DNA of 62,504 nt, the filler included, from Phoronis australis (taxonomy: Eukaryota; Animalia; Phoronida), in NCBI GenBank assembly GCA_002633005.1. It is 5 parts of 5 records of this genome, joined end to end, with 100 filler letters (N's around TTAATTAATTAA, not from the genome) between each part and the next. Parts side by side here need not be neighbours in the genome. Positions count along the whole stretch, not along the records: positions 1 to 21,093 come from NMRA01000417.1; 4 more parts are not named here. The stretch is one strand, 5' to 3'. A program made the position numbers and the translations under genes. Positions within the stretch are counted from its first letter, which is position 1, and each line of letters starts with the position of its first letter. Below are positions 1-53,506 of the stretch, piece by piece. The notes beneath the pieces are model-generated. The model saw nothing but the letters and a program-made list of their open reading frames with translations. It searched no databases and had not been told where the DNA came from.

Positions 1-1024
1 GTATGGCAACTCTGAAGCAGATTGTGTTGAACGTCTTAGCCGATGAGCTTAACACTAACAGTCCTTCCTATGATAGTATTAGGGACGTGACAAAAAATTT
101 CAAATTCTTATTTAATATTTAAAAATGCATTGATTTAAAAAAACATCAAAAACAGAGTCAAACAAAAAAAAAATTAACAAAATCCATTAAGCCGTTGACT
201 TTTTATGAACGTTTGAAGAGCGAAAATTAGCCCTTTTTTTTAGTCCTCTGAATACATGGGAGTAAATGCGCATTCATGTGACCCAAAATTAGTTTTTTCA
301 CAATAACTTTCTTAATACTTTTAAGAACAGCGTGAAAATTTCAGGATACGACAATCCTTGTATTTACTTAGTGAGAGACATTTTTAAGACAACAAAAATT
401 CCAAATTCCAAAATGGCGGACAATATGGCCACCATTATGATTGCAAAAGCGTCTTATTTTTACGTTAACAAACTATATGGTGTAATATACCATTAACAAA
501 CTATATGGTGTAATATATCAAATAATAGGTCTTTTAATTGCTTTTTTGACAAGAATGATTAAAAATTTTTTTAAAATATATAGGCAAGATTTTCGACATT
601 TCCGCAATAGCTCCCAAAATTACTGCATTAACGACCACCAGAAGAGATTGATTCAACAACCATGATGTACATGTAAGATATGAAATTAAAGGTGATTTTA
701 TAAACTGCAAGGATATCAAATAAGTGTTATGCATACATGTTTATTTTGTACAAAATGGCTGCCAAAATGGCTACCATCAATAAAACAAAAGTAGTTAGTA
801 ATATAATTTTACAAGACAAATGAAATCAAAATGAAATTTGTTCAACTTTAAGAACAAACTTGGGTTCGATCTGCATCAAGACAACCCAGAGGTTCAAAAC
901 TACATCTGTAACAAATACAAGGGTGCACAGAGTGCATCACATAGAGCACAGATACAAGGGATGCTCAATATTTTAATCCCACAACGGGGAGCAATGCGAA
1001 TGGAGCAAATGAACTCGAAACTTT

Positions 1025-1420
1025 AAAAATTCCCACTAGGTGACGCAGAATACATCAAATATGTCTGAAAATGGCAAGGCATTGTAGTCTCTTTAACAGA
1101 AACCTAACTACTAAGTTTCATGAAAATCCATCTATGAACTCTGAAGATACACAGGAAAACCTACAAAAAGTTGCCTCTGGGGGGGAACACCAATTGTTGG
1201 ATTGGTCTAGAACTCCTCATCCTATGTTGTCAGCAACCTCCAAAATAAACAGCCGCCAACTTCCACAAAGTTCTTGCAAAAAGCAAATTCTCAACTAGGG
1301 GGCGCCAGAGTAGTCAAACCCATTCGAACGTCAGCTGCAGTCTCCTCAGTAGGAACACACCTGCCAATTTTCAGAATGATTCTTTAAGTGGTTTGGCAGA
1401 TAGAAAAGCAGACACTAACA
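1025..1420 (-). repeat. Fragment of the HINE internal repeat family inside the transposon 3' region
   Basis: 1295-1317 (actagggggcgccagagtagtc) is the reverse complement of the motif at about 16303-16325. It also has the reverse complement of the gattttcatgaaa motif seen in the HINE units. Confidence 0.6.
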
Positions 1421-1497
1421 AATTGACTTGAAAATTCAAAATATGGCCATATAAATGTGTGGGTGTATTATAACAACCAGGATAACATAACTCCAAA

Positions 1498-3565
1498 CTA
1501 GCAAAAGTACAAGTCATTTGAGATGAAGTCCGCAGCCAGCTCGTACTTGGGCACATCATAGTCAACAGCCTCCTCTTCACTTTCACAGCTATCTTTCCAA
1601 TAACTAACACAATAAACCTCCTTCTGTTTTATCAACTTCATAACTTTACCATTGTATATGCTTCTTTCCCCTTCATCGAGCCACACATGTAAAATATTTC
1701 TGCCAACTATCAGTCCTTCCATAATATCTTTCACAGATTCTCTAACAGACAATTCATACGCACCAAGATCTTTGTCTACATTGAATGTTGCACTCTTCAA
1801 TCTCTTTTCTAACTTTCTACGACTTTGCATTTCCCTTTTCCTTGCTTTTTCCTGCATTCTTTTTTTCAACTCCCTAGTTACTTCCGTTTTCCAGCTTCTT
1901 TTTGAATCACGCTGCTTTCGAGCAATGTTAATACACATTCCGACGAGATCTTCACGACTTTTCTGATTCATGCCGTCCAGCTTCATTACAACTTTGTTTT
2001 TTTTAGCTCTAATTTTGGAGGAATGATAATCAAGTGTTGCACTAGGTGCCTTGCTCTGAGCAGCGCTAAACATGCCCATGACTTCCTCACTGTCCATATT
2101 ATGCAGGCGTGCGGAAGAAATAACTTCTTGAAAATCTGCGTCTGTTTTCAGACTGAAGTAGCGAGTGTATTGTCGTTCCAGCACAGACACAATGCCATCT
2201 AGACAGGACACCATCATCTTGTTAAACAAAGCCAGGTTGGATGGGACACTTTGGAGGCAAGCCAGACGTTCATCATGAGTCAAAACTTCACCAAATACGT
2301 CGTGAGCTGTGGTGAGAGTACGACCAGGGCTAGCTTTCAATTCACTGCAGCAGGTGATGGCAGTCTTGACAAACCCGAAAGCTTCAACATGGTTCACATT
2401 GCCCGCTGGCTTGTAGTAGCGTTTCATCCATGGCCCAGACAGCAAAACACAAACCAGGCCAAGCACCTGAAATTCAATTCGGGCAATTTCTGTGCCAAAA
2501 TCTGCGGCCAACGCTTTCTGTAATGTAGCACAATTAAGTAAAGATTCATTTAAAAACTTCTGGAAAACATCATAATACTGATAATATTTAGCAGAAATAT
2601 CAAACAGGATGTGGAGCCGATTTCCTCGATATCGTGGAATGAAAGTGCTGCCGAGCTGGGAGTCATTAAGCCACAACTTAAAAGCTTTAGGATCTCCCTT
2701 ACCATCTTTGTATCTCACTGTGTTCATGGCCCATATGATATTAGCTGCCATGCATTCACGGCCAAAAACTTTGCCTTGACCCTGTTCTTGTGCCTTAAGG
2801 TTGCCCCTGCACATACTGGCAATGGTATCCAAGGGATGAAGGTTGCAGTTTAGCTCATTTAACATTTTCCCCCATTCTGACTCCAACAAAGAAATCGCTG
2901 CATGGTTTACAGGTGCCCGATCTGACATGGTATTGTCAATGTTCTTTATAATTTGCAAACGACAATCTTCGAATGGTAAATTATACACAGAAGAATAAAC
3001 AGATGCAATGTGTCGTATGGTGTTATTAACATGCCCTGCGTAGTCTGCAGCCGTTCCACCAGGTAGCTCATCTACAGACATCACTAGAGTTTCTTCCTTT
3101 GTGGTGACATGCACACTGTTTATGTGCACCCCTTCCTGAGTGGTTGCATCAAAACCCACCGTAAGGTGGGGTACGGTCATCAGGGTCTCCCCTACAAGAA
3201 GGTCGGACAAAGCACCCAGTTCGCGTGTCATGAGCTCCACTGTGTTCCGGTGAGGTAAAGAGTCCACTTGAACACCAACTCGGTTCAGGATGCTACCGAT
3301 TAAAACAGATGCATTGTTAGTTGGTACATTATTCACAATTCCATCGTAGAACATAAGCCTCAGTTCAGTGGGATATGACTTTGACTTCTGAAATGAGGTC
3401 CCAACATCACTTTCTTTTTGAGATTTCACTATGTCTTCTAATTCTTCAACATTCTCTTGGAGCTGCTCATTTCTCTGTTGGAGTTCAGCGATGCGCTGGT
3501 CATTTGCCCTGAGTGATGGATCAGGAGTGTGACTTCTTGAGCGTTGGCTCCTTAATTTGTAATAC
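1498..3565 (-). CDS. Transposase coding exon 2: DDE/RNase H-like core with CxxH, plus C-terminal Tudor/Spindlin-like segment (spliced product 937 aa)
   Basis: Acceptor tatttcag|G at 3566/3565 completes the AG|G Arg codon, so phases match; 746+2068 = 2814 nt. Motifs: VGFDATT (D1), MSDRAPVN (D2), NCNLHPLD (CxxH), GNRLHILF, HNMDSEEVMG (E). C-terminus IVGRNILHVW...YNGKV...YCVSYW. Confidence 0.85.
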
Positions 3566-3791
3566 CTGAAATACATAAATATTGATAAGTTCCTTTCGTA
3601 ATCACTTTTTAACATAAAAAAATTAAAAAGCACACTTTTGAATGAGAAACATTTGCGTTTTTAGAGATTTATATTTGTATAAGCAATGACCCTGGTTTTC
3701 TAATGTATCATTACAAGATATGTATACACAAAGTTCACTTTATTTTGCTTACATTCAAAGTATAACTTTCACTCAAACAACATGTACAAAC

Positions 3792-4537
3792 CTCTTCATT
3801 TTACGGTGGGTATTTCTCAGCCTAGCCAATTCAGCCTGAAGTTTCCCACACTGACTTCGTCGTAGTTCACTGATTACTTTATTCTTTTGTTCAATGGTAA
3901 GTTTCTGGCGCTTTATCTGCTGTGTCAAATGCTTGATCTGGCATACTTTTGTAGACTTCAATGAAGACTTGAGATCACGAATGGTTTTCTTGTACTTAAG
4001 CTTTTCAGCAGACTTTTCCTTTGAAACATACTGTAGTCGTCTCTTTAGTTTTTGTTTCCTAGGTGTTAGGGCTTCTGGCTTAGAGGATCTTGTTGAGGTG
4101 GATGGCTCTGATTCAGCTGAAGGGCCAGCTTCAAGCTCTGGTTGTGTCAGTTCAGGAGATTCAGGTTCATGGTGAGGGTCAGCAACCTCGCAAGACACAG
4201 GTTCTTGACTGGGTTCAGGAACAAGAGGAAACAACTCTTCGCACACTTCTTTAAACTGGGACATGCTTTTTTCATTTGAAAGTGATTGATACTTCTTTAG
4301 TGACCTATTCACCAGCGATATAATGTTGCTTGCAGTAATTTTCCAATTACCGATAAGTTTACGTTTTAAAGTTAACACTGTCTCTGTCTGGGATTTGTTG
4401 CACTGCAGGAACACATAGAGGGCATGACCATTTTTCAGGTTTTCACTGGGAACAGCGCTGAAGTTCTCTTGAAGGAACTGTCTCGCTTTGCCAGGTTGAG
4501 ATGGAGCTGACAACTTTCTTCTTTTTTTTGGAGACAT
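3792..4537 (-). CDS. Transposase coding exon 1 (NLS, acidic/Pro linker, coiled coil)
   Basis: Acceptor ttttcag|a precedes ATG at 4537, giving MSPKKRRKLS (SV40-like NLS). The Lys-rich heptad region ends at donor AG|gtttgt at 3792/3791 (phase 2). Confidence 0.8.
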
Positions 4538-6145
4538 TCTGAAAATATAAAGAAAGACATGTAAGAAATAAGATACCAATGTACAGTGTCATAATATATT
4601 TGTTGTACACGAAATGATTCAGACTGCCTTTTCCTGTAACTACAATTAAACACTCATTACAAAACCTCGAACTAAAGTTTGGAATTTTTCACACTGATGT
4701 CCAACACAGTGAAAAACATGCTACTTAAATGAGCAACACATAACAAAAAAATAACATTTTCGATGAGGCGTTTAGTGTTCACAAAGTGCATTGATTTATC
4801 ATTTTTTTAAAAATTAAACAGTTCCTTTCCTTAATAAGTGTACTTCAAGAACTTGGAAACTACATATGTAAAACTTCTCCAGTTGTAGGCAAAATATGTC
4901 AGGCAAGTGTAATTATATTTTGTCAAATACCTCATAAACTTAAAGGAATCAATGTTTACTTTGATGTACCCACTCAATGATTTTCCAAGCACTAGCAACG
5001 AACTTAACTTTTGAAAGAATGACAATATCAGCAACTATTCTTGTCCCAAACTGAAGAATTTTTTAAACATGTATGATTAGAAAATCATTACATGTTATTC
5101 ATGGAAAAAATCAACAAAAACACTACTGTCATATAGAATTGACAAACTGAGGGTTTACTTCCTAAAAAACAGTAAAACATGGCAATATTGTGAAGAAAAC
5201 CTGGCCAAAAATCACAATATAAACATTCATTATCAAGAATTCGGGTTTTGAGCCAATCAAATGTCTTGGATTTGGTCACGTGACCAGAATTCGCCGGACA
5301 AAGACTACCTATAATAAGCCTTACTAACTCGTCGATTTTCAAAAAATATCAATGAAAATATATAGAACGTCATCCAAGTTGATCACTTCCGCTATTAATT
5401 TACATAAAATAGTCATTCTACCTAATTTAAGGGCAATTGTTAACCATGAACTGCCATGCTGACACTGGGTCTGTCATGGCTGGTCAGCGAGAATGCCTGC
5501 CTCGGGTCTTAACTTTCACGGAGTTAGCAGATCATGATACGGTGAATTGATTGGAATGAAATTTGGTGAACAGTTGCAAGAGATATAAAAAAAGAAAACA
5601 TATTACATTTCATAAGAATCAATGGCTTACCTTTCAAAATACAAGCTGTCAAACAGGAGCGAAAATTTCCCCCAACTTCTCACCAGTCACATGCTTTAAC
5701 AAGAATGAAAACACAACAAAGAAAATGACGTATGCCTAGAAGAATTTACTGTCTACGTCATCAATAATGTGGTTCCCTGTTTTCTTGGTTTCTGGAGGAG
5801 AGAGAGTGGAAATACTATAGCCACCGTGAAACAATGGCTGTCTAATCGATAATCGCCATTACGCAACATCTGGGAAAAGCCAATCAGCGTTGAGATAAGA
5901 CTTTGTCACGTCCCTAGCTTGCATGATGCGGATTCTCATTCTATTTCTGATTCTCATCGCCAATAGATTCTCCCTAATATTTCTAAAAATCTTGAATTGC
6001 CACTTATGGCATAAGTGACTTATGCCAATTTCAGCTTCTGTTGTGTGTACTTCAGAGGTAAAAAGCTGTATACTAAACTAACCTTGGTGCAAAGCTGTAT
6101 ACTTAAACATAAGTGTACAAGTTTGTGTCAAGCTGTATAGACACC

Positions 6146-7077
6146 GGTGACCTAAAGTCGTGAATATAAGCATAATAAGTGCCGATTGTCACACTACCCA
6201 ATGTCCGTTAGCAACTGCTCATGTGATGTCATGGACATATATCAGCCTTCACAAATATACGTGTTTTGACAATCTTAATCCTTGTTTGTCTCCGTAAGCA
6301 GAGTTTTGAAACGGTCGCTGATATCTCCGGCCATTTTGAATGAGGCCCTAAAGTCGTGACCGTTTCGGTTAGACGGAAATACACGAAGTAAGACCACACA
6401 AGTCAACTACAGTGCGTACAGTTACTCTAGATGAAATAAAAATGCATTGCATTGTTTATTAATTCAGTTGCAATTGAAATAAATTGTTATATGTTTTGCA
6501 CCCAACTTTGATGTGCACAGACGTTTTCAATGAGGTTGTTCACATAAAACGCTAAGGACCCAGCATCAATTATCTCTCTGTATTTTATTGCTTTGGCCTT
6601 ACAAAACTTTATTGACCCTGGGACATTTTGATACATTGTTCAAGCTACCCCTGGAGCTCGTGTTTGAGTAAATCTGAACAATGAATATTTNGTTCACGTA
6701 AAACGCTAAGGACCCAGCATCAATTATCTCTCTGTATTTTATTGCTTTGGCCTTACAAAACTTTATCAACCCTGGGACATTTTGATACATTGTTCAAGCT
6801 ACCCCTGGAGCTCGTGTTTGAGTAAATCTGAACAATGAATATTTTCGAAAATATATCCCAAAAATGCTCAAAAAAGTGGATTAGCGAAATATGCTGTTTT
6901 TAAGATACATTTGAAAAAAGAAGCCACTCACTCACTGTTTGTTATCATATTGTGAATACCAAGACGTCCGGGTGTTTGTTTGACGTTCGCAAGCAGACGA
7001 ACGCTGGAAACTTCAACGCCAGATGTCGCGGGACCGCGCAGATGAGGAAATAAGTTCGTTCACGACTTTAGGGCACT
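6146..7077. mobile_element. Non-autonomous TIR element (MITE)
   Basis: ggtgacctaaagtcgtgaa (6146-6164) versus ttcacgactttagggcact (7059-7077): 17/19 inverted match. A further internal copy lies near 6345. No clean TSD. Confidence 0.55.
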
Positions 7078-8759: not shown

Positions 8760-11700
8760 CCTAGGCCAGGTAAGTTCGGGTTAATAATAATATCCGACGA
8801 AACCACCTAGCTCGACTTGCTTAGGGTGGGGGAAACCCGGACAGCGGTAAAATACGGACAAGTCTAAATAAACGTCAAATATATTAATAACCAAGATGCC
8901 TTACCACTAAATGAAAAGATTATTCATAAGGTAGGGGAAGTTCGGGTAAATGCAGACGAAACCACCTAGTTTTGAACAATAGTAGGGATTTATTTATCAC
9001 CTCACTTGAATTACAACAAAGTTTCAACAGATATGAGGCATGTTCAGCAATGTAGTAAATGTCGACGTCAGTCTCAGCTGTGGCGTCTCTGTTGTATAGT
9101 CCGGGTACCTATCGTCGTCAGGCTCCAAAGGTCGTCCGCCATCTTGTTTCGCATGCAGCGCAACCACGCGGGACTTAGCGTTCCAATTTGGAGTGCTCGT
9201 CTGCACGTTAGGTACTAACCTCTCGGGAGAAACACGCATGGAAGAACTGAGACTAAAACTAATGCATTTACCGACTCTTTTTTGAGACCACTTAAAAACT
9301 TGTAGATTTTACTAATGCACTTTTTTGTTCATTTTCAGAAGATATTTTCGAAACTAAATTTTCTTCAGACGGAACAAAAAGCAACTCAGGGGTTGTTTAT
9401 GCAATGTATCTATTTCTCCCAGGCACTAACCGACATCTGTTTGGCCAAAGGAAAAACGCAGCAGACAAATGGATCACGCTGGGTGCTTAACAGTTTCAGC
9501 CCACGCCTTAGTCATCAAAATATTGTTTACTTGTTTTTTATATTGCCACACAAAGTACTGAGCTCAACATTTATGTTGAAATTTTTGGTTAAAGCATTTT
9601 GAATTTATTTCAAGAAAATTAAAATACTTGAATTGATAGAGAATGGCCACCAATAAAGTAAAACATTGACTTTATTTCACTATATTGCAATTGTTACATA
9701 CAACACAGCATGACATAATCAAAAATAAAAGAAGAGATTGAGCAATAAAATTCAAATGCGACTTGGGTATTTATTTATTTATTTATGATTGCATAAGCCT
9801 GTTAAAGATGAGAAAAAAATCAAACAATACGATTATGGGTAATTTATTAGAACAATTGTATTGAGGTTCAATGATCAACTTGCGCCGACAAAGTCTCAAA
9901 GGGTTATACTTCTGTTCTGGCTGACAAGGTGTTAACAGAAAATGAAGAGAAACTGAAAAGAAAAAATAAGACAGCAACGAGAAGTGGTGTTAAGTACAAC
10001 AAGATCAAAAAGTCAAATAAAGAGGTCACAAACAGAAATAAGTAAGGTATATCTGGAATAAAACAATCCAGGGCTCAGCCGTGATTTATTTTCCAGAACT
10101 GAAATTCTAAATCAATTTTAATCGATTTAAAAATCGATATCATACTAGTAAAGCAGTTTGTGGTTGAAGTAGAATTGTTGTATACCACTTTCCACTATTT
10201 TCTTGGCCTTTTTCTTTGTGGTTTGCTGTTCTTTCAAAAGGCGGCAGCATATGACGACCATAGGTGTCGTTATAAAATGGCTGCCGAAAAGCAATGCACA
10301 GTTGAACAACTCGGCATAAGTAAAAGAAAACGTTTGAATCAACGAATACTATATATTTGTGAGAGTTAAATCAAATCCTATTCAGATCATAACTTTGAAG
10401 TGGAATGATTGGGTAAGTACGACAACAAGCCGGTTTTATGCTTAGGCGGACGACCATTGGGTTCCCGAGTATAATAAAGTCGGCTGCCTAGCAGACACAC
10501 ATGTTCGGGCCTATTAACACGGTGCAAGAGAAAACTCCGGAGTATACTCACATTACGTCCGTACAGGACGGCAGCGAACTCCAGAAGGCCCAGACGATCT
10601 TGTCACGTGGTCTTGATGGGCGACTCGTCACGTGATAGATGGGTGACCTCGGCTGGGCTCTTCTGGCGTTAGATGTCGTACCAGGCCAAGACCAACATTG
10701 TTAACAAAAGGACATCACAACATAGAGACGCCACAGCCGACATTTACTACATCTCTATGTTGTGATGTCCTTTTCGTTACAATGTTGGTCTTGGCATGGT
10801 GCGACACAGTGTTGTATTAGTTGGCTGCAGCTACTGCTACAGTCAAACAGGTTCGGCCTATTGAACACGGTGAAGAGTAAAGTCTAGAGTGTACTTACAT
10901 CACATCCGCACGGGACGGCCACAAACTCCAGAAACCCCAGATGATCTTATCAAGTGGTCCTGAGAGGTGACTGGTCACGTGATGACAGGGTGACCTCTGC
11001 TGGGCACTTCTGACATCAGGTGTCGCACAATGCCAAGACCAACATTGTAACGAAAAGGACATCACAACATGGAGACGCCACAGCTGATACTGACGTCGAC
11101 ATTTACTACAGCACCTTATGTCGCTCTGCCGTCTGCTTCGCGTGGTGATTTCGAAAGTCTGCAGTAGGTACACTGTCTTTCCAAGTTTTATTTAGGTCAC
11201 TTGGTCACTTGTCATGTAAATGAACTTGAATTTACTTGATGCATAATTCATCACTATGCAGTTTTATGTGTTAATTCCAATACAAAATCTTACAAAAAGC
11301 ATGATTTGACAAAAAAAAACTTGTGTCTGAAATTTCCCCTCCAACTTTTTGTATGTTGCGGTGTTTTTAGGCTACTAGATGCTTTTCTTGACGTTTTCTT
11401 GAGAGATTTTCGTAATCAGGTGATGACCTTCTGTTTTAAGAAGTCAATCTAAAACTTAATTTGTCAACAACAAATGCGCTGTCTACCACGTGGGCTGCAC
11501 ACAAATTGGTAAGGGCGGATGTACTTTTACGTTGTTTATGTGGCCAGGACATGATATGATGACTTCTTAAATTTTGTTATTCGTCTGATGATAAGACTGC
11601 TAAATAATACCTAAATTCATTTTTTGAAATCATAAAGTTAGTACTGTTATATATTTTGTCCGAGTTTTACCTATTCAGAATTTGCTGGTCCGATTTTCCC

Positions 11701-15921: not shown

Positions 15922-17306
15922 GCGTACGGTGTCCGCTGCTCTATCTCCAAAACCCTTTGATACATGTTCATGAAGTTTGCACATGTTCCATTCATGAATG
16001 GGACGGCATGAGTGAACTTTCGGACGGAGCCAACTACCATTGTGTCCCCTAGTGGCAATTTTAATTTTTTATTTTCATGAAATTTGGTATGTAGGCACCT
16101 ATTAGTGAGATGACGCCATCCTCCCATCTTCTGATGGATTCGAAGTAGTTTGCGCCACCTAGTGGCCATTTTTACTGTTTTCGATTCTGTTTTTTGCGTC
16201 CACCCCTCTATCAACCAAACCGCTCAAAGGATGATTGTGAAAATTAGCATGTATGTGCTTACTATGAAGAGAATGGTTGACGATGATTTTCTGACAGTTT
16301 CGACTACTCTGGCGCCCCCTAGTGACAGTTTTTTTGCGCCTGTGACTGTATCTCCTAAACCATTCGCAGGATCTTTACGAAATTTAGTTAGTTTATTTAT
16401 ATGATGTTAACAACGGACGAAGACGACTTTTGGACAGATCCAACTACCGGTGTGCCCCCTAGTGGCAAGTTTATTTTTTACGTTTACCTTTGTATCTTCA
16501 AATTTAAAGTCCTTAACGGATTTTTATGAAATTTAATGTGTAGGCACCTATTAGTGAGGTGACGCTATCCTCCCGTTTTTATATGGATTCGACGTAGTTT
16601 GCGCCACCTGTGGCCATTTTTACTGTTTTCGGGTCTGTTTTTTACGTCCACCCCTCTATCAACCAAACCGCTCAAAGGATGAATGTGGAAATTGGCATGT
16701 ATGTGCTTACTATAAAGAGGATGATTGACGATGATTTTCCGACGATTTCAACTACTGTGGTGCATCCTAGTGGCAGTTTTGTTTTTGTTATCTTTTCAAT
16801 TCATCTCTAACAACTAGTCAATTTAAACAAAGGCCCATTGCTACCTATAGGCCTAATCCACTAGCTGCTCAGTAGGCGTGCAGTCCGGCTCCAAAGTCGC
16901 TGAGAATAGATGGGTTTTCATCTGAAGAATGAGTTTGTGGCAATCCTGAAAATTATGGGAATTTGAAAGTTGCAAGCATTTGATAATTCAATTGATATCT
17001 TTTTAGAAATATTGGTTATCATCAACAGGACTAACACTCCCATCCAATTAGATGGAAAACGCACATGAATGGTTTTGTTTACCCTACCTAATTTGCATTC
17101 ATAAGGGAGGACTCGCATATTGTGCAGTTTTTACAGGAGTTCTGGTAGTGCAGAAGTTCAATATGTTGTACCATATTCAGAACATCGAATTCAGACTATA
17201 AGAATGCTGTGCAAAACATTACACTTACAGACCGAGGTAAGATGTAGACTCTGCTATCAAGACATAATAATGTGACTGACTTTGCAAAGACACTTCACTT
17301 GGACTG

Positions 17307-35242: not shown

Positions 35243-36485
35243 TTTTTTATGCGCCGACATATTTATATATGGAAGCATTATGCTGTCATCTCCATCCGTC
35301 CGTCCTGCGTCCGCTGCTCTTTCTCCAAAACTTCTTGATGTATGTTCATAAAGTTTTGCTCATGTGTTCCTTCCGTCGATGCCCCTAGTGGCAATTTTAT
35401 TTTTTACGTTTACCTCAGACTGTATCTTCAAAAGTCCTGAACGGATTTTCATAAAATTCGGTATGTAGGCACCTATTAGTGAGATGACGCTATCCTCTTG
35501 TATTCGGATGGATGTGACGTAGTTTGCACCACCTAGTGGCCATTTTTAATGTTTTTGAGTTTGTTTTTTTCGTCCACCCCTCCATCAACCAAACCACTCA
35601 AAGAATGATTGTAAAAATGGGCATGTACGTTCCTATTAGGAAGTGGACGGTTATGGTTGATTTTCCGACTTCGACTACTGTGGCGCAGTGCCTCTTAGTG
35701 GCAGTTTTGTTTTTTTTGCACCTATGCCTGTATCTCCTAAACCGTTCGCAGGATCTTTACTAAATTTAGTAAGTGTATTCACTGATGTTAACAACTGATG
35801 ACGACGACTTTCGGACAAATGTGACTTCTGATGTGCCCCCTAGTTACAATTTTAGTTTTTTACATTTAACTCTGTATGTTCAAAAGTCCTCTACATATTT
35901 TCATAAAATTTTAAATACAGCCATCTATTGGTGAGGTGACGCTATCCTCTTGTTTTTGGATGGAATTGAGGTATTTTACGCCACCTGGTGGCCATTTTTG
36001 CTGTTTTCAAATTTTGTTTTTGGCGTCCACCCCTCTATCAACCAAATCATTCTAAGGATGGTTTTAAAAATTGGCGTATATGTTCTCAGTGTGAAGGGGA
36101 CGTTTGATGATGGCGACTGACTACTGTGGTGCCTCCTAGTGGTAGTTTTGTTTTGTTTCGCGCCCATAGCTGTTTCTTCTAAACCCACTGCAGGATCTTT
36201 ATTAAATTTAGTGGGTGTATTTATAATGAAGATAACAACAGATGACTATGACTTTCAGGTGGATCCAACAGACACTGTGCCCACTTAAGTGGCAATTTCA
36301 TTTTATTCTGTTTTCTTTTGTTTCTCTGAAGTTATGAAATATGTATGGCATGTTCCCGTTTTTGGATGGATTGTACATTTTTGTGCCATCTAGTGGCCAT
36401 TTTTATGATACAAGTAAATAACCCTAAAAGCACACCATTTGTGATGCATTCGTGGGCGCATTTCAACGCTCCGCATTGCTCTTGT
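35243..36485 (+). mobile_element. HINE/DINE-1-like element, copy 2 (complete, ~1.24 kb)
   Basis: ttttttt-ATGCGCCGAC ... ccatccgtccgtcc ... internal tandem units ... GTGGGCGCAT (36452-36461), then hairpin caacgc-tcc-gcattg and a CTTGT end. Confidence 0.8.
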
Positions 36486-37840: not shown

Positions 37841-39665
37841 TTTTTTATCTTGTCAAGTTTACTTCAAAACATTCCAACTACAGGAGTTTTTTTGTTTTTT
37901 TTACTTGTGATAAATAAACAATTCAAAACAGATAAGCCGTAGTTATGTGGCCAGAGAGTGACACTCAAACAATATGGTCCCAGTTGGCCCTTCCCTCTGT
38001 AGGGTCACAGTATTGCACTCTAGATGTATTATAGGGGGTCCTGACACAGGTGTGGTAAGCATCTGGTATTGGTCAGTTCTGCACCTTCCACATACAGTAT
38101 TTAGTGATTTGTGAGCCTCATCTTGTGTGCCTGGCTAGAATCAGGAAATTCTGCTTCAGACTGGATATCAGTACCTCAAATAAAGACCAACATCCTGAAT
38201 GGACGAATGCTTGACAATACATAATTCATTTTTTCCAACCAGAAAAAAAATCACGACTTTTCAACGAAATAAATGCATTGTTGATTAACTGAAGGGTATT
38301 CAAAAATGTACTGGCACATTATTACAAGAGTTCAAAGTTAGTTCCTGTGGATCAGACTGTGTGCTTGGGTTACTGTTACACCTTGCTGTAAAGGTACAGA
38401 CCTAATCTGTTGCTCTTTAGGCATGTGAATGGCAAACGACTGGTCTTTGTAGAAAGAAAGTTTATTGTGAAACGCTATCGACAAGAAAGACAATAGATCA
38501 TCTTTCCAAGTTAATTAACAATGCATTTATAATTTTGTTTTATTGTAGGAGTTCCTTTCTGACCAACCTATTCTCCAGAAGTTCCTTTCTGTCCCCCTCT
38601 TTATGAATTTAGACCAGTAATGTTGTTCCTTAGTCATTAAAATATGCAGTTTTAATTTGTCTCAGAAACTCAAAAGTTTTTTCATGAAAATCATATAAGT
38701 GCTATTTGTTGATAGACCATCTTGCAAAAGTGGAAAAATAATTATTCATGTCTGCGTTTTAGAGAACAGCATAAAGCATGTGAATTTGATCAGTCATTTC
38801 TGAGGTATGATGGTCTAAAGTTTGCCAAATTTGGACATTTTTAGGTCCTATATAACCTTAAACTGTTTAATTTCTTTGCTAGTAAAAAGTAACGAGTTCT
38901 TAATTACAATAACCCGTTGACTGCTTTCACAGGTAATTACAGAATCTCGTAAGTTGTGATTTTCTGTTAGTCAACAGGTATGGATAGTAAAACATTCATA
39001 AGAACTTTTTATTTTGTTTTTTCATTGCAGATAAAAGCAACACATTGTCTTTTCTTTCAATGTTTGTCCATTAAATCTACAACACATTTTCATTTCATTC
39101 ACACTTAAATTGCCCCATGCTTTAAGTTTAAAGGGATACTAAACCCTGTTTTGATGATTTCAACCAATCCTCGTTCTGTCACTTGCTAATGCATTATTGG
39201 TGAAAAGCTTCTAAGTTAAAGGCAGGAACCTGCTTAAAACGAATACTCCTTATGTTACACATTGGACATTATAGTCCTGCCCGTTTAGCAGACTTTGAAG
39301 GGAGTTTCCAAAATTTCCTCCAAACTTTTGAGGGTTGTTGAGAGTTACAGAACATTATTTTGCTTCAGAGAACTGGATTGGAAAGTCATTCCTATGTACC
39401 CACATATTGCCGTCATCTTTGTCTAGGAGTTCGTTTTCTGCGCCATGTGGTGGCAATTTAAAAAAAATGGAGTATATATTTTTACGTCTGCCATCCTATA
39501 TGCCAATCTGCTCATAGGATGATTATGAAAATTGGAAGATGTGACCCTGATGAGAAGACGGCAGCTGACACTGATTTTCGGACGGGCTCGACTGCTGTGG
39601 CGACCCCCAATGGCATTTTACTTGGCAGAATTCTTCAAATGCCAACAAGTATGTTGGTCATCCAT

Positions 39666-51850: not shown

Positions 51851-51865
51851 GTGTTTTACCACCGG

Positions 51866-53506
51866 AAGTCAGTGGAGGCCACTAGAAGCCAGTGGAGGCC
51901 ACTTCTTGCCAATGCAGGCCACTGGAAGACAGTGGAGGACAAAGCAGGCCACTGCAGGACACTGGAGGCCACTGGAGACAAGTGAAGATCACTGGAGGCC
52001 AGTGAGGGCCACTGACGGACAGTGCAGGCCACTGGAGGTTCTTGGAGGCCAGTGGAGGTCACTGGAGGGCGGTACAGACCACTGGCGGCAATTGGAGACC
52101 ACGGGCGGCTAGTGGATGCCACACTGGAGGCCAATGCAGGCCAGTGGAAAGCACTGGAGTCCAGTGGAGTCCACTGGAGGCCATTGGAGGCCGGTAGAAA
52201 ACACTGGACGCCAGTGGAAGACATAGGAAGCCACTGGAGAAAAATGGGGGGCAGTGGAGACCACTGGAGGATATTGGAGGCCACTGGACGCCAGTGGAGG
52301 CCAGTGGAGGTCATTGGAGGCCATTGAAGGCCAATAGAAGCCAGTGGAGGCCTGTGGAGGTCCGTGCACGCACCGGAGGCTACTAGAGGGCACGGGAGGA
52401 TACTGGAGGGCACTGGAGGACATTGTAGGCAGCTGGAGGCCAGTGGATGCCAGTGGCGGACAGTGAAGGCAAGTAGATGCACGTGGAGGCCAATGGAGGC
52501 CAGTGCAGGACAGTGGGGGCCACTCGAAGCCAGTGCAGGCCAGTGGAGGCCATTGGAAGCCAGGGGACGTCAATGGGGCCATTGGAGGGCAGTGGAGGCT
52601 AGGCGATGCCAGTGGAGGCCACTGGACGCAAGTGGAGGGCAGTGGAGGCTAGTGGAGACCACTGGAGGCCAGTGCAGGATCTTGGAGGTCTGTAAAGGCC
52701 AGTGGGGGCCAGTGGAGGCCAGTGGAAGCAAGTGGAGGACAGTGGAGGCTAGTGGAGACCAGCGGAGGCCACTGGAAGCCAGTGGAGTCCAGTGCAGTCC
52801 AGTGGAGGCCAGTCTAGGCCAGTCGAGGCCAGTGGAGGCCAGTGGAGGTCAGTGGAATCCAGTGGAGGCCAGCGGAGGCCACTCGAGGGCAGTGGAGGAC
52901 ACTATAGGCCACTAGAATTCAGTGGAGGCCAATGGAGGCAAGCGGAGGACAGTGGAGGCCAAGGGAGGTTAGTGGAGGCCAGTGGAGGCCAAGGGAGGCC
53001 AGTGGAGGCCAGTGGAGTCCAGTGGAGGACAGCGCAGCCCCGTGGAGTACATTGGAGGCCAGTGAAGGCGAGTGGAGGCCAGCGGAGGCCCTTGGGGGCC
53101 TGTAAAGGCCAGTGGGGACCAGTGGAGGCCACTGGAGGCCAGTGGAGGACAGAGGAGGCCAGTGGAGTCTAGTGGAGGCCAGTCTAGGGTAGTGGAGGCT
53201 AGTGGAGGCCAGTCTAGGCCAGTGGAGGCCAGTGGAGACCAGTGGAGGCCAGTGGAAGCCAGTGGAGTCTAGTGGAGGCCAGTGCAGGCCAGTGGATGCC
53301 ACTGGAGGCCAGTCGAGGCCAGTGGAGTCTATTGGAGGCCAGTGGAGGCCAGTCGAGGCCAGTGGAGGCCAGTGAAGAGCAGTGGAGGCTAGTATAGGCC
53401 ACTGGAGGCCAGTGGAGGCCCTTTGAGGCTAGTGGAGGGCTGTGGAGGCCGGTTGAGGCCAGTGGAGGCCGGTGAAAACCAGTGGAGGCCAGTGGAGGCC
53501 AGCGGA
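51866..53506. repeat. GC-rich 10-bp satellite (CCAGTGGAGG / CCACTGGAGG)n, running into the gap
   Basis: More than 150 tandem units are visible. It explains all the overlapping low-complexity ORFs on both strands. Confidence 0.97.

Follow-up and report, generated by a model that had tools for sequence, protein, structure and literature searches.

Does a DNA transposase of the phoronid Phoronis australis carry its own reader of histone marks, and would such a reader help to choose where the element inserts? Host partners and the sequence or shape of the DNA are mostly held responsible for how DNA transposons choose their targets in chromatin. The locus lies in a window of 62,504 nucleotides, the whole stretch of DNA that we analysed, and the original prediction was that a transposase encoded there ends, after a basic coiled coil, in a Spindlin/Tudor-like module of about 70 aa and may thus be a reader fusion. 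Positions are those of the window throughout.

The element and its spliced transposase gene

The whole element spans 80..5916 (5837 bp) between perfect 15-bp terminal inverted repeats. The 5' repeat, TAGGGACGTGACAAA, lies at 5902..5916 on the minus strand and was located by an inverted-repeat search and by reads leaving at 5916/5917; the 3' repeat, at 80..94 on the plus strand, is a perfect match to TAGGGACGTGACAAA. Same-species reads and contigs from runs X2, X3, X4, X5, X6 and X7 exit at 5916/5917 into many different flanks, so that the multi-copy element truly ends at this junction. The other end, at 80, is predicted from the inverted repeat. An 8-bp target-site duplication is described as a feature of the hAT superfamily in the accessible part of PMC2803484. 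The 8-bp flanks of this copy, GATAGTAT and GCTTGCAT, match at 5/8 positions, so that no duplication is evident; the same is true of locus L004 (4/8 agreement), which alone among 45 related loci has both ends, and a search of these 45 loci and the window found no duplication at any full-length element. Ends of different copies may have been joined in either assembly. The element is an autonomous cut-and-paste transposon with an intact reading frame and perfect inverted repeats, hAT-like in its predicted fold.

A deletion derivative joining about 1169/1194 to 3872 retains the two ends together with the larger part of the N-terminal exon, and drops the core and the Tudor module. It is abundant and transcribed; the summed depth of the 1169->3872 derivative is 527.6 vs 64.5 in run X1, depth being no copy number.

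The transposase, 937 aa long, is encoded by a spliced gene on the minus strand with no internal stop, and no second ORF inside the element reaches 150 aa. The non-coding first exon and promoter region cover 5631..5900 (spliced RNA joints end at 5631; the start is approximate). Intron 1 (4539..5630, GT..AG) lies directly ahead of the start codon. Its RNA joint, 4517->5631, is supported by 21, 31 and 105 reads in the same-species RNA runs X5, X6 and X7, these reads coming from diverged copies of the family, and in our reading the acceptor is at 4539, placed by the 12 letters between the joint ends. The joint 4517-5631 is also seen in a contig of run X2 (depth 171.7), a run guessed to be DNA; either X2 is RNA or intron-less copies exist.

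The N-terminal 248 aa are encoded by an exon at 3792..4537, an open frame that matches the N-termini of 64 stored homologs. It opens with a basic NLS-like MSPKKRRK, and it has no BED finger, no Pfam family at cut-off and no significant PDB match. Intron 2 (3566..3791, 226 nt, GT..AG) we infer from the splice-site pair and the frame, since only one of the three GT-AG pairs tested preserves the frame (937 aa, no stop); no spliced read is listed across it in the RNA runs. The last exon lies in a 720-codon open frame, 3660..1498 on the minus strand. In the three RNA runs, coverage over 1405-3744 is low and one-stranded (mean depth 0-3.6); assuming libraries of the usual type, the strand covered is the sense strand. 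The identity threshold for these reads was 90%, and other copies may be their source. Below, residue numbers such as D140 count along the 689 aa of the last exon (P0001), the full protein being numbered 248 higher, and numbers such as W20 along the 80-aa terminal piece (P0002).

Several other repeats are present in the window. Within the 3' region of the element, 1018-1449 has matches of about 70% at 16071-16771, 35382-35635 and 39486-39607, and CCACTAGGTGACGC and ACTAGGGGGCGC in this segment resemble a CTCF site. Positions 1-72 are probably the end of another repeat, 9 bp from the element end (reads leave at 72; CCTA at 67-70). A probable non-autonomous DNA transposon lies at 9051-11110, where a 240-bp direct repeat accompanies inverted repeats 39-56 bp long. 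At 6538-6844, a stretch of 153 bp is directly duplicated at 98% identity with an N where the copies meet, possibly through an error of assembly, and a short-period tandem repeat at 51856-53428 (CAGTGGAG..-type units) yields several spurious ORFs.

A predicted Hermes-like catalytic core and basic linker helix

The protein upstream of the module is a transposase, as had been supposed, of the DDE type, and its predicted fold is closest to that of Hermes. With the model of the last exon (pLDDT 92.1) as query, the best Foldseek match is Hermes (E 5.6e-6), with P-element transposase next, and structural alignment to Hermes gives Z 18.7 and rmsd 3.4 over 343 aligned residues, the other listed folds scoring 10.8 or less. 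The hAT-like core, assigned by this predicted fold and by conserved residues, occupies 1966..3565 on the minus strand and contains a helical insertion. We infer that D140 (3148-3150), D216 (2920-2922) and E494 (2086-2088) form the catalytic triad. They are conserved in 78/80, 84/85 and 86/86 proteins, respectively, and C241 and H244, which make up the CxxH motif, in 85/85 each; the 86 aligned proteins, picked for having the tail, comprise 85 of the 120 listed matches plus the query itself. RYRGNRLH occupies the place of the RW motif of hAT enzymes.

No Pfam family is found at cut-off in either exon, BED and PF05699 are absent up to E 10, and a full-length profile searched against PDB sequences returns coiled-coil matches only. 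As there is neither a BED finger nor a PF05699 match, we file the protein as hAT-like rather than assigning it to a hAT subfamily. In the ESM Atlas, the nearest clusters to residues 65-540 of P0001 are unnamed fungal and cnidarian ones, with basidiomycete scores of 0.94 and 0.91.

Core and module are connected by a basic linker at 1795..1965 on the minus strand (residues 535-591). What had been described as a basic coiled coil is basic (24 K/R vs 11 D/E over residues 535-609 of P0001), but is predicted as one single 57-residue helix. This helix is poorly conserved, with a mean identity to the query of 27%, as compared with 42% for the tail and 40% for the insertion domain.

The tail is predicted to fold as a Spindlin-type Tudor module

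The peptide first noted at the C-terminus is present on the minus strand, starting at 1710 and ending with a stop codon at 1498-1500. The module itself is real but its extent was understated: it runs from about 1740 to 1501, 80 aa rather than about 70, and includes an N-terminal helix. Profile search, model and structural alignment together place a Spindlin repeat-2-like Tudor module, with its stop, at 1498..1740.

The model of the tail (pLDDT 93.7) comprises a helix, four strands, a second helix and a closing strand, and a check for a Tudor/SH3-like fold run on it returned a predicted Spindlin-type Tudor barrel. The best structural match is residues 125-193 of Spindlin1 (Z 9.2, rmsd 2.1, 67 aligned, 21% identity). 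When 982 chains from the Foldseek ranking were realigned, Spindlin entries took the first 24 places with Z 8.0-9.2; in nearly every case the alignment covers repeat 2, which in the Spindlin1 alignments comprises residues 124-193 and includes the C-terminal helix and acidic residues. An unbiased, wide search of 48,161 chains puts the Tudor of RDM15, an H3K4me1 reader, on top with Z 7.8, a value inside the tool's stated background of 7-8 (rmsd 1.7, 58 aligned), followed by Spindlin-4 (Z 7.6, rmsd 2.2, 64 aligned) and, at rank 6, BAHCC1 (Z 6.3); the TraI barrel, at Z 7.2-7.4, is level with the readers. Foldseek finds no match to the tail model at E<=0.001, Spindlins still filling most of the top ranks.

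A search independent of the structure model points the same way. When a profile of 51 C-terminal stretches was compared with 177,635 PDB sequences, 17/17 matches at E<=0.05 were Spindlins, albeit weak ones (the lowest E is 2.8e-4 over a whole chain and 0.18 over a single repeat). The 80 aa of this copy alone match no Pfam family and no PDB sequence. A Pfam scan of the 51 members yields scattered matches to Tudor families, with PTM/DIR17 in 6, BAHCC1-like in 5, Agenet in 3 and Spin-Ssty (PF02513) in 1/51, at E 0.1; this protein does not reach the cut-off of PF02513. The ESM Atlas ranks a Spin/Ssty cluster first (score 0.90, 169/256 features) with a recognition value of 2044, below the 2300 mark, which we treat as a weak lead. 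The module is net acidic (17 D/E vs 9 K/R). Judging by the model, the module very probably has a Spindlin-type fold.

A putative methyl-lysine pocket and its conservation

In the available text of PMC3967050, the H3K4me3 cage of Spindlin1 is formed by F141, W151, Y170 and Y177, while D184, D189 and E142 anchor H3 R2 and A1, and the D184A substitution lowers affinity about 90-fold. H139 and D184 line one shared pocket, according to the portion of PMC11167732 at hand. In HMMER alignments, W20 (1681-1683), Y29 (1654-1656) and Y47 (1600-1602) of the module fall on W62/W72/Y91 of Spindlin1 repeat 1 and on F141/W151/Y170 of repeat 2, and H18 falls on H139, the Spindlin1 numbers being found by counting along the printed chain. 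By residue counting, Y61 (1558-1560) likely corresponds to Y177; this is the least certain step. A register in which residue 80 equals Spindlin1 193 puts D71 (1528-1530) on D184 and D76 (1513-1515) on D189, assuming ungapped last ten residues. The count of 68 aligned residues given for 1-80 versus 124-193 agrees with this register, and with residues matched end to end in this way both equivalences are likely. At the position of E142 there is no acidic counterpart (residue 21).

A check of homologs for the aromatic positions found the cage aromatics kept. Among 237 rows of the domain, drawn from 262 stored proteins, an aromatic stands at W20 in 96%, at Y29 in 97%, at Y47 in 99% and at Y61 in 88%; in rows of the same domain, H18 is found in 220/231, D71 in 216/220 and an acid at D76 in 205/214. 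The rows were chosen by the same profile, a choice that favours conserved ones. The three cage positions W20/Y29/Y47 are all aromatic in 84/86 selected full-length rows. The loop after Y47 is longer than that of Spindlin and carries a family-specific W48 (219/229), and with these two features the pocket may differ from Spindlin's. Position 55 is E in this copy and aromatic in 72% of the family.

The module belongs to a transposase family found across animals

We found 171 homologs, and 94 of the 120 listed carry the module; among the 26/120 without it, 25 end no more than 26 residues past the core match and one runs into unrelated sequence. Among the matches listed, the sources are Hydra, limpets, snails, chiton, priapulid, sea spider, copepod, echinoderms, hagfish and teleosts. 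The module is thus not a one-off fusion, as it characterises a family that ranges from Hydra to fish. The tail profile retrieves 460 representatives at E<=0.001, 150 of them listed; among the matches listed, 139 are new, 79 of these have at least 40 residues upstream, and 67/79 match the core. In these 150 listed of 460, no protein context for the module other than this transposase family was found, nor among the matches listed in further searches, one of which was weak. Of 45 related loci, many of them partial, 28 encode the module. Over 3655 pairs, identity in the core goes along with identity in the tail (rho 0.61, 0/999 shuffles as high), which fits joint inheritance; kinship by itself accounts for it.

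Three stored proteins of 139-190 aa (P0126, P0163 and P0205) join the transposase N-terminus straight to an intact module, without the core; possibly they are deleted copies, products of alternative splicing or repressor forms. Small CAG-ended MITEs lie near or inside related elements (L002/L003 3630-3777, L007 7329-7838, L014 7668-7890 and L039 9613-10015), with 7/8 target duplications, typical of hAT derivatives.

Proposed function and alternative explanations

We propose the following mechanism. The transposase would cut and paste like Hermes, and its tail would bind a methylated histone tail, most likely H3K4me2/3. The W20/Y29/Y47/Y61 cage would hold the methyl-lysine, and D71 and D76 would hold H3 R2 and the H3 N-terminus in the manner of D184 and D189 in Spindlin1. 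The long basic helix may act as a spacer, bringing a nucleosome next to the target DNA within range of the reader, and several readers per transposase oligomer would add avidity. Tethered by its reader to marked chromatin, the transposase would insert with a bias toward such sites.

On the predicted structure, the module probably binds a methylated histone tail. That this binding serves target choice is argued by analogy and is a tentative step. A reader-guided hAT-like transposase is the best explanation overall, and we give it a probability of roughly 45%. Of the reader fusion first proposed, the predicted fold and the conservation of the cage have held up; that the module belongs to an entire hAT-like family and that the gene is spliced had been missed. 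More speculative is the wider claim of a pan-animal hAT-like family with its own H3K4me reader, which would be the first cut-and-paste transposase steering integration by a histone mark, and whose repeat is perhaps a sister or the source of the Spindlins.

Methyl-histone reading could instead act at the donor end, helping the transposase to find, open or keep its own copies unsilenced against Spindlin-type silencers, with no steering of insertion. The cage evidence (aligned aromatics, conservation, Spindlin fold) serves this explanation equally, and mouse SPIN1 recognises young transposons via H3K4me3 and H3K9me3 and then silences them, according to the part of bioRxiv 10.64898/2026.08.20.746118 that is accessible. 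P0126, P0163 and P0205, consisting of N-terminus and module, could act in this way without catalysis; however, they may stem from gene prediction on copies with deletions, and the commonest derivative in this host, with the joint 1169->3872, lacks the module. We consider a role restricted to the donor end unlikely.

Slightly less likely again is that the barrel serves structure, oligomerisation or DNA contact as an SH3-like domain comparable to those of Tn7 TnsB and F TraI, its aromatics being kept for folding. In shape, TraI is nearly as good a match as the Spindlins (Z 7.2-7.6, rmsd 2.1-2.3, 65 aligned), TnsB reaches Z 7.0 (rmsd 1.9, 57 aligned), and with both the BED finger and the Pfam hAT dimerisation domain absent from the family, such roles may fall to some other part. 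Yet identity to TraI and TnsB is 7-9% vs 20-23% for Spindlins, Spindlins alone score by sequence in the PDB profile search (E<=0.05), the module is acidic overall, and its best-conserved residues are those lining the ligand pocket of Spindlin1.

Binding of a non-histone methylated protein, such as PIWI-pathway methyl-arginine tails or a host cofactor, in the service of localisation or evasion of germline defence, is improbable: Tudor cages do accept both methyl-lysine and methyl-arginine, R8me2a is a ligand of Spindlin1 pocket 1 (PMC3967050, in the available text), the Tudor of SMN also matches, if less well (Z 5.5, rmsd 2.6, 56 aligned), and the extra W48 and longer acidic loop may reshape the pocket, but the best matches, Spindlin repeat 2 and RDM15, are both H3K4me readers, and the acids anchoring the H3 N-terminus appear to be kept.

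If a reader-guided transposase is the right explanation, its single repeat may be related to the triple repeats of the Spindlins, which silence mammalian transposons by reading the same mark; this raises a connection, open to testing, of the transposon domain with Spindlin, reported to be a reader through which the host silences young transposons. With a built-in reader, an intact and transcribed transposase puts direct targeting by histone marks within reach of experiment, and the module could serve as a natural, swappable targeting part for gene-delivery transposons.

Comparison with known systems

In the literature that we searched, with Repbase and subscription journals outside its scope, we found no description of a DNA transposase with a Spindlin/Tudor domain; the accessible portions of PMC5751038, bioRxiv 2020.05.07.082677 and PMC13269885 contain nothing on such a transposase. 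KolobokP (PMC9587614) and hATx-6 (PMC8721813), as presented in the parts of these papers available, are likewise C/DxxH-group DNA transposons of marine invertebrates or Hydra. KolobokP, our first guess, was rejected: zinc fingers, the His-Me nuclease and long terminal direct repeats are lacking here, and four motifs of the present family are missing from the PMC9587614 supplements at hand. hATx was rejected on domain content, as hATx-6 has BED and PF05699 (PMC8721813, accessible part), both lacking here.

With Hermes and other hAT elements (PDB 6DWZ, 4D1Q, 2BW3) the element has in common the RNase H core, the large helical insertion, CxxH, D/D/E and short terminal inverted repeats beginning TAG. 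It differs in sequence (about 10% identity) and in having no BED finger, no PF05699 match and, at this copy, no evident 8-bp duplication; after the Hermes match ends at residue 530, it has the extra 57-residue helix and the Tudor tail.

The Tudor of Arabidopsis RDM15 (PDB 7DE9) and the tandem Tudor of BAHCC1 (8YE8) resemble the module in the barrel, a three-aromatic cage and similar spacing; the cage of RDM15 is W616, Y623 and Y641 in the accessible text of PMC8184781. Both are host proteins, however, and the mono-methyl-selecting D643/D645 of RDM15 have no clearly conserved counterpart right after Y47. Repeat 2 of Spindlin1-4 (PF02513; PDB 7E9M, 4MZH, 4UY4) matches the predicted barrel, C-terminal helix and closing strand of the module from end to end, and the three aligned cage positions are kept, as most of the other pocket positions appear to be. 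Spindlins are free-standing proteins of three tandem repeats, which pack together (PMC3967050, text available), whereas the module is a single repeat ending a 937-aa transposase, with 10 extra residues between Y47 and D71 and a conserved extra W48, and lies below Pfam detection.

The chromodomain and Tudor Gypsy integrases (chromoviruses; Gypsy-10_Ec32) also place a histone-reader fold at the C-terminus of a mobile-element DDE enzyme. Chromatin readers fused to Gypsy integrases are a precedent, and the brown-algal Gypsy-10_Ec32 is termed the first reported TE with a Tudor domain (PMC12477816, 2025, both from the accessible part). Gypsy readers sit in LTR retrotransposons, whereas the element described here is a DNA transposon with a module of predicted Spindlin type.
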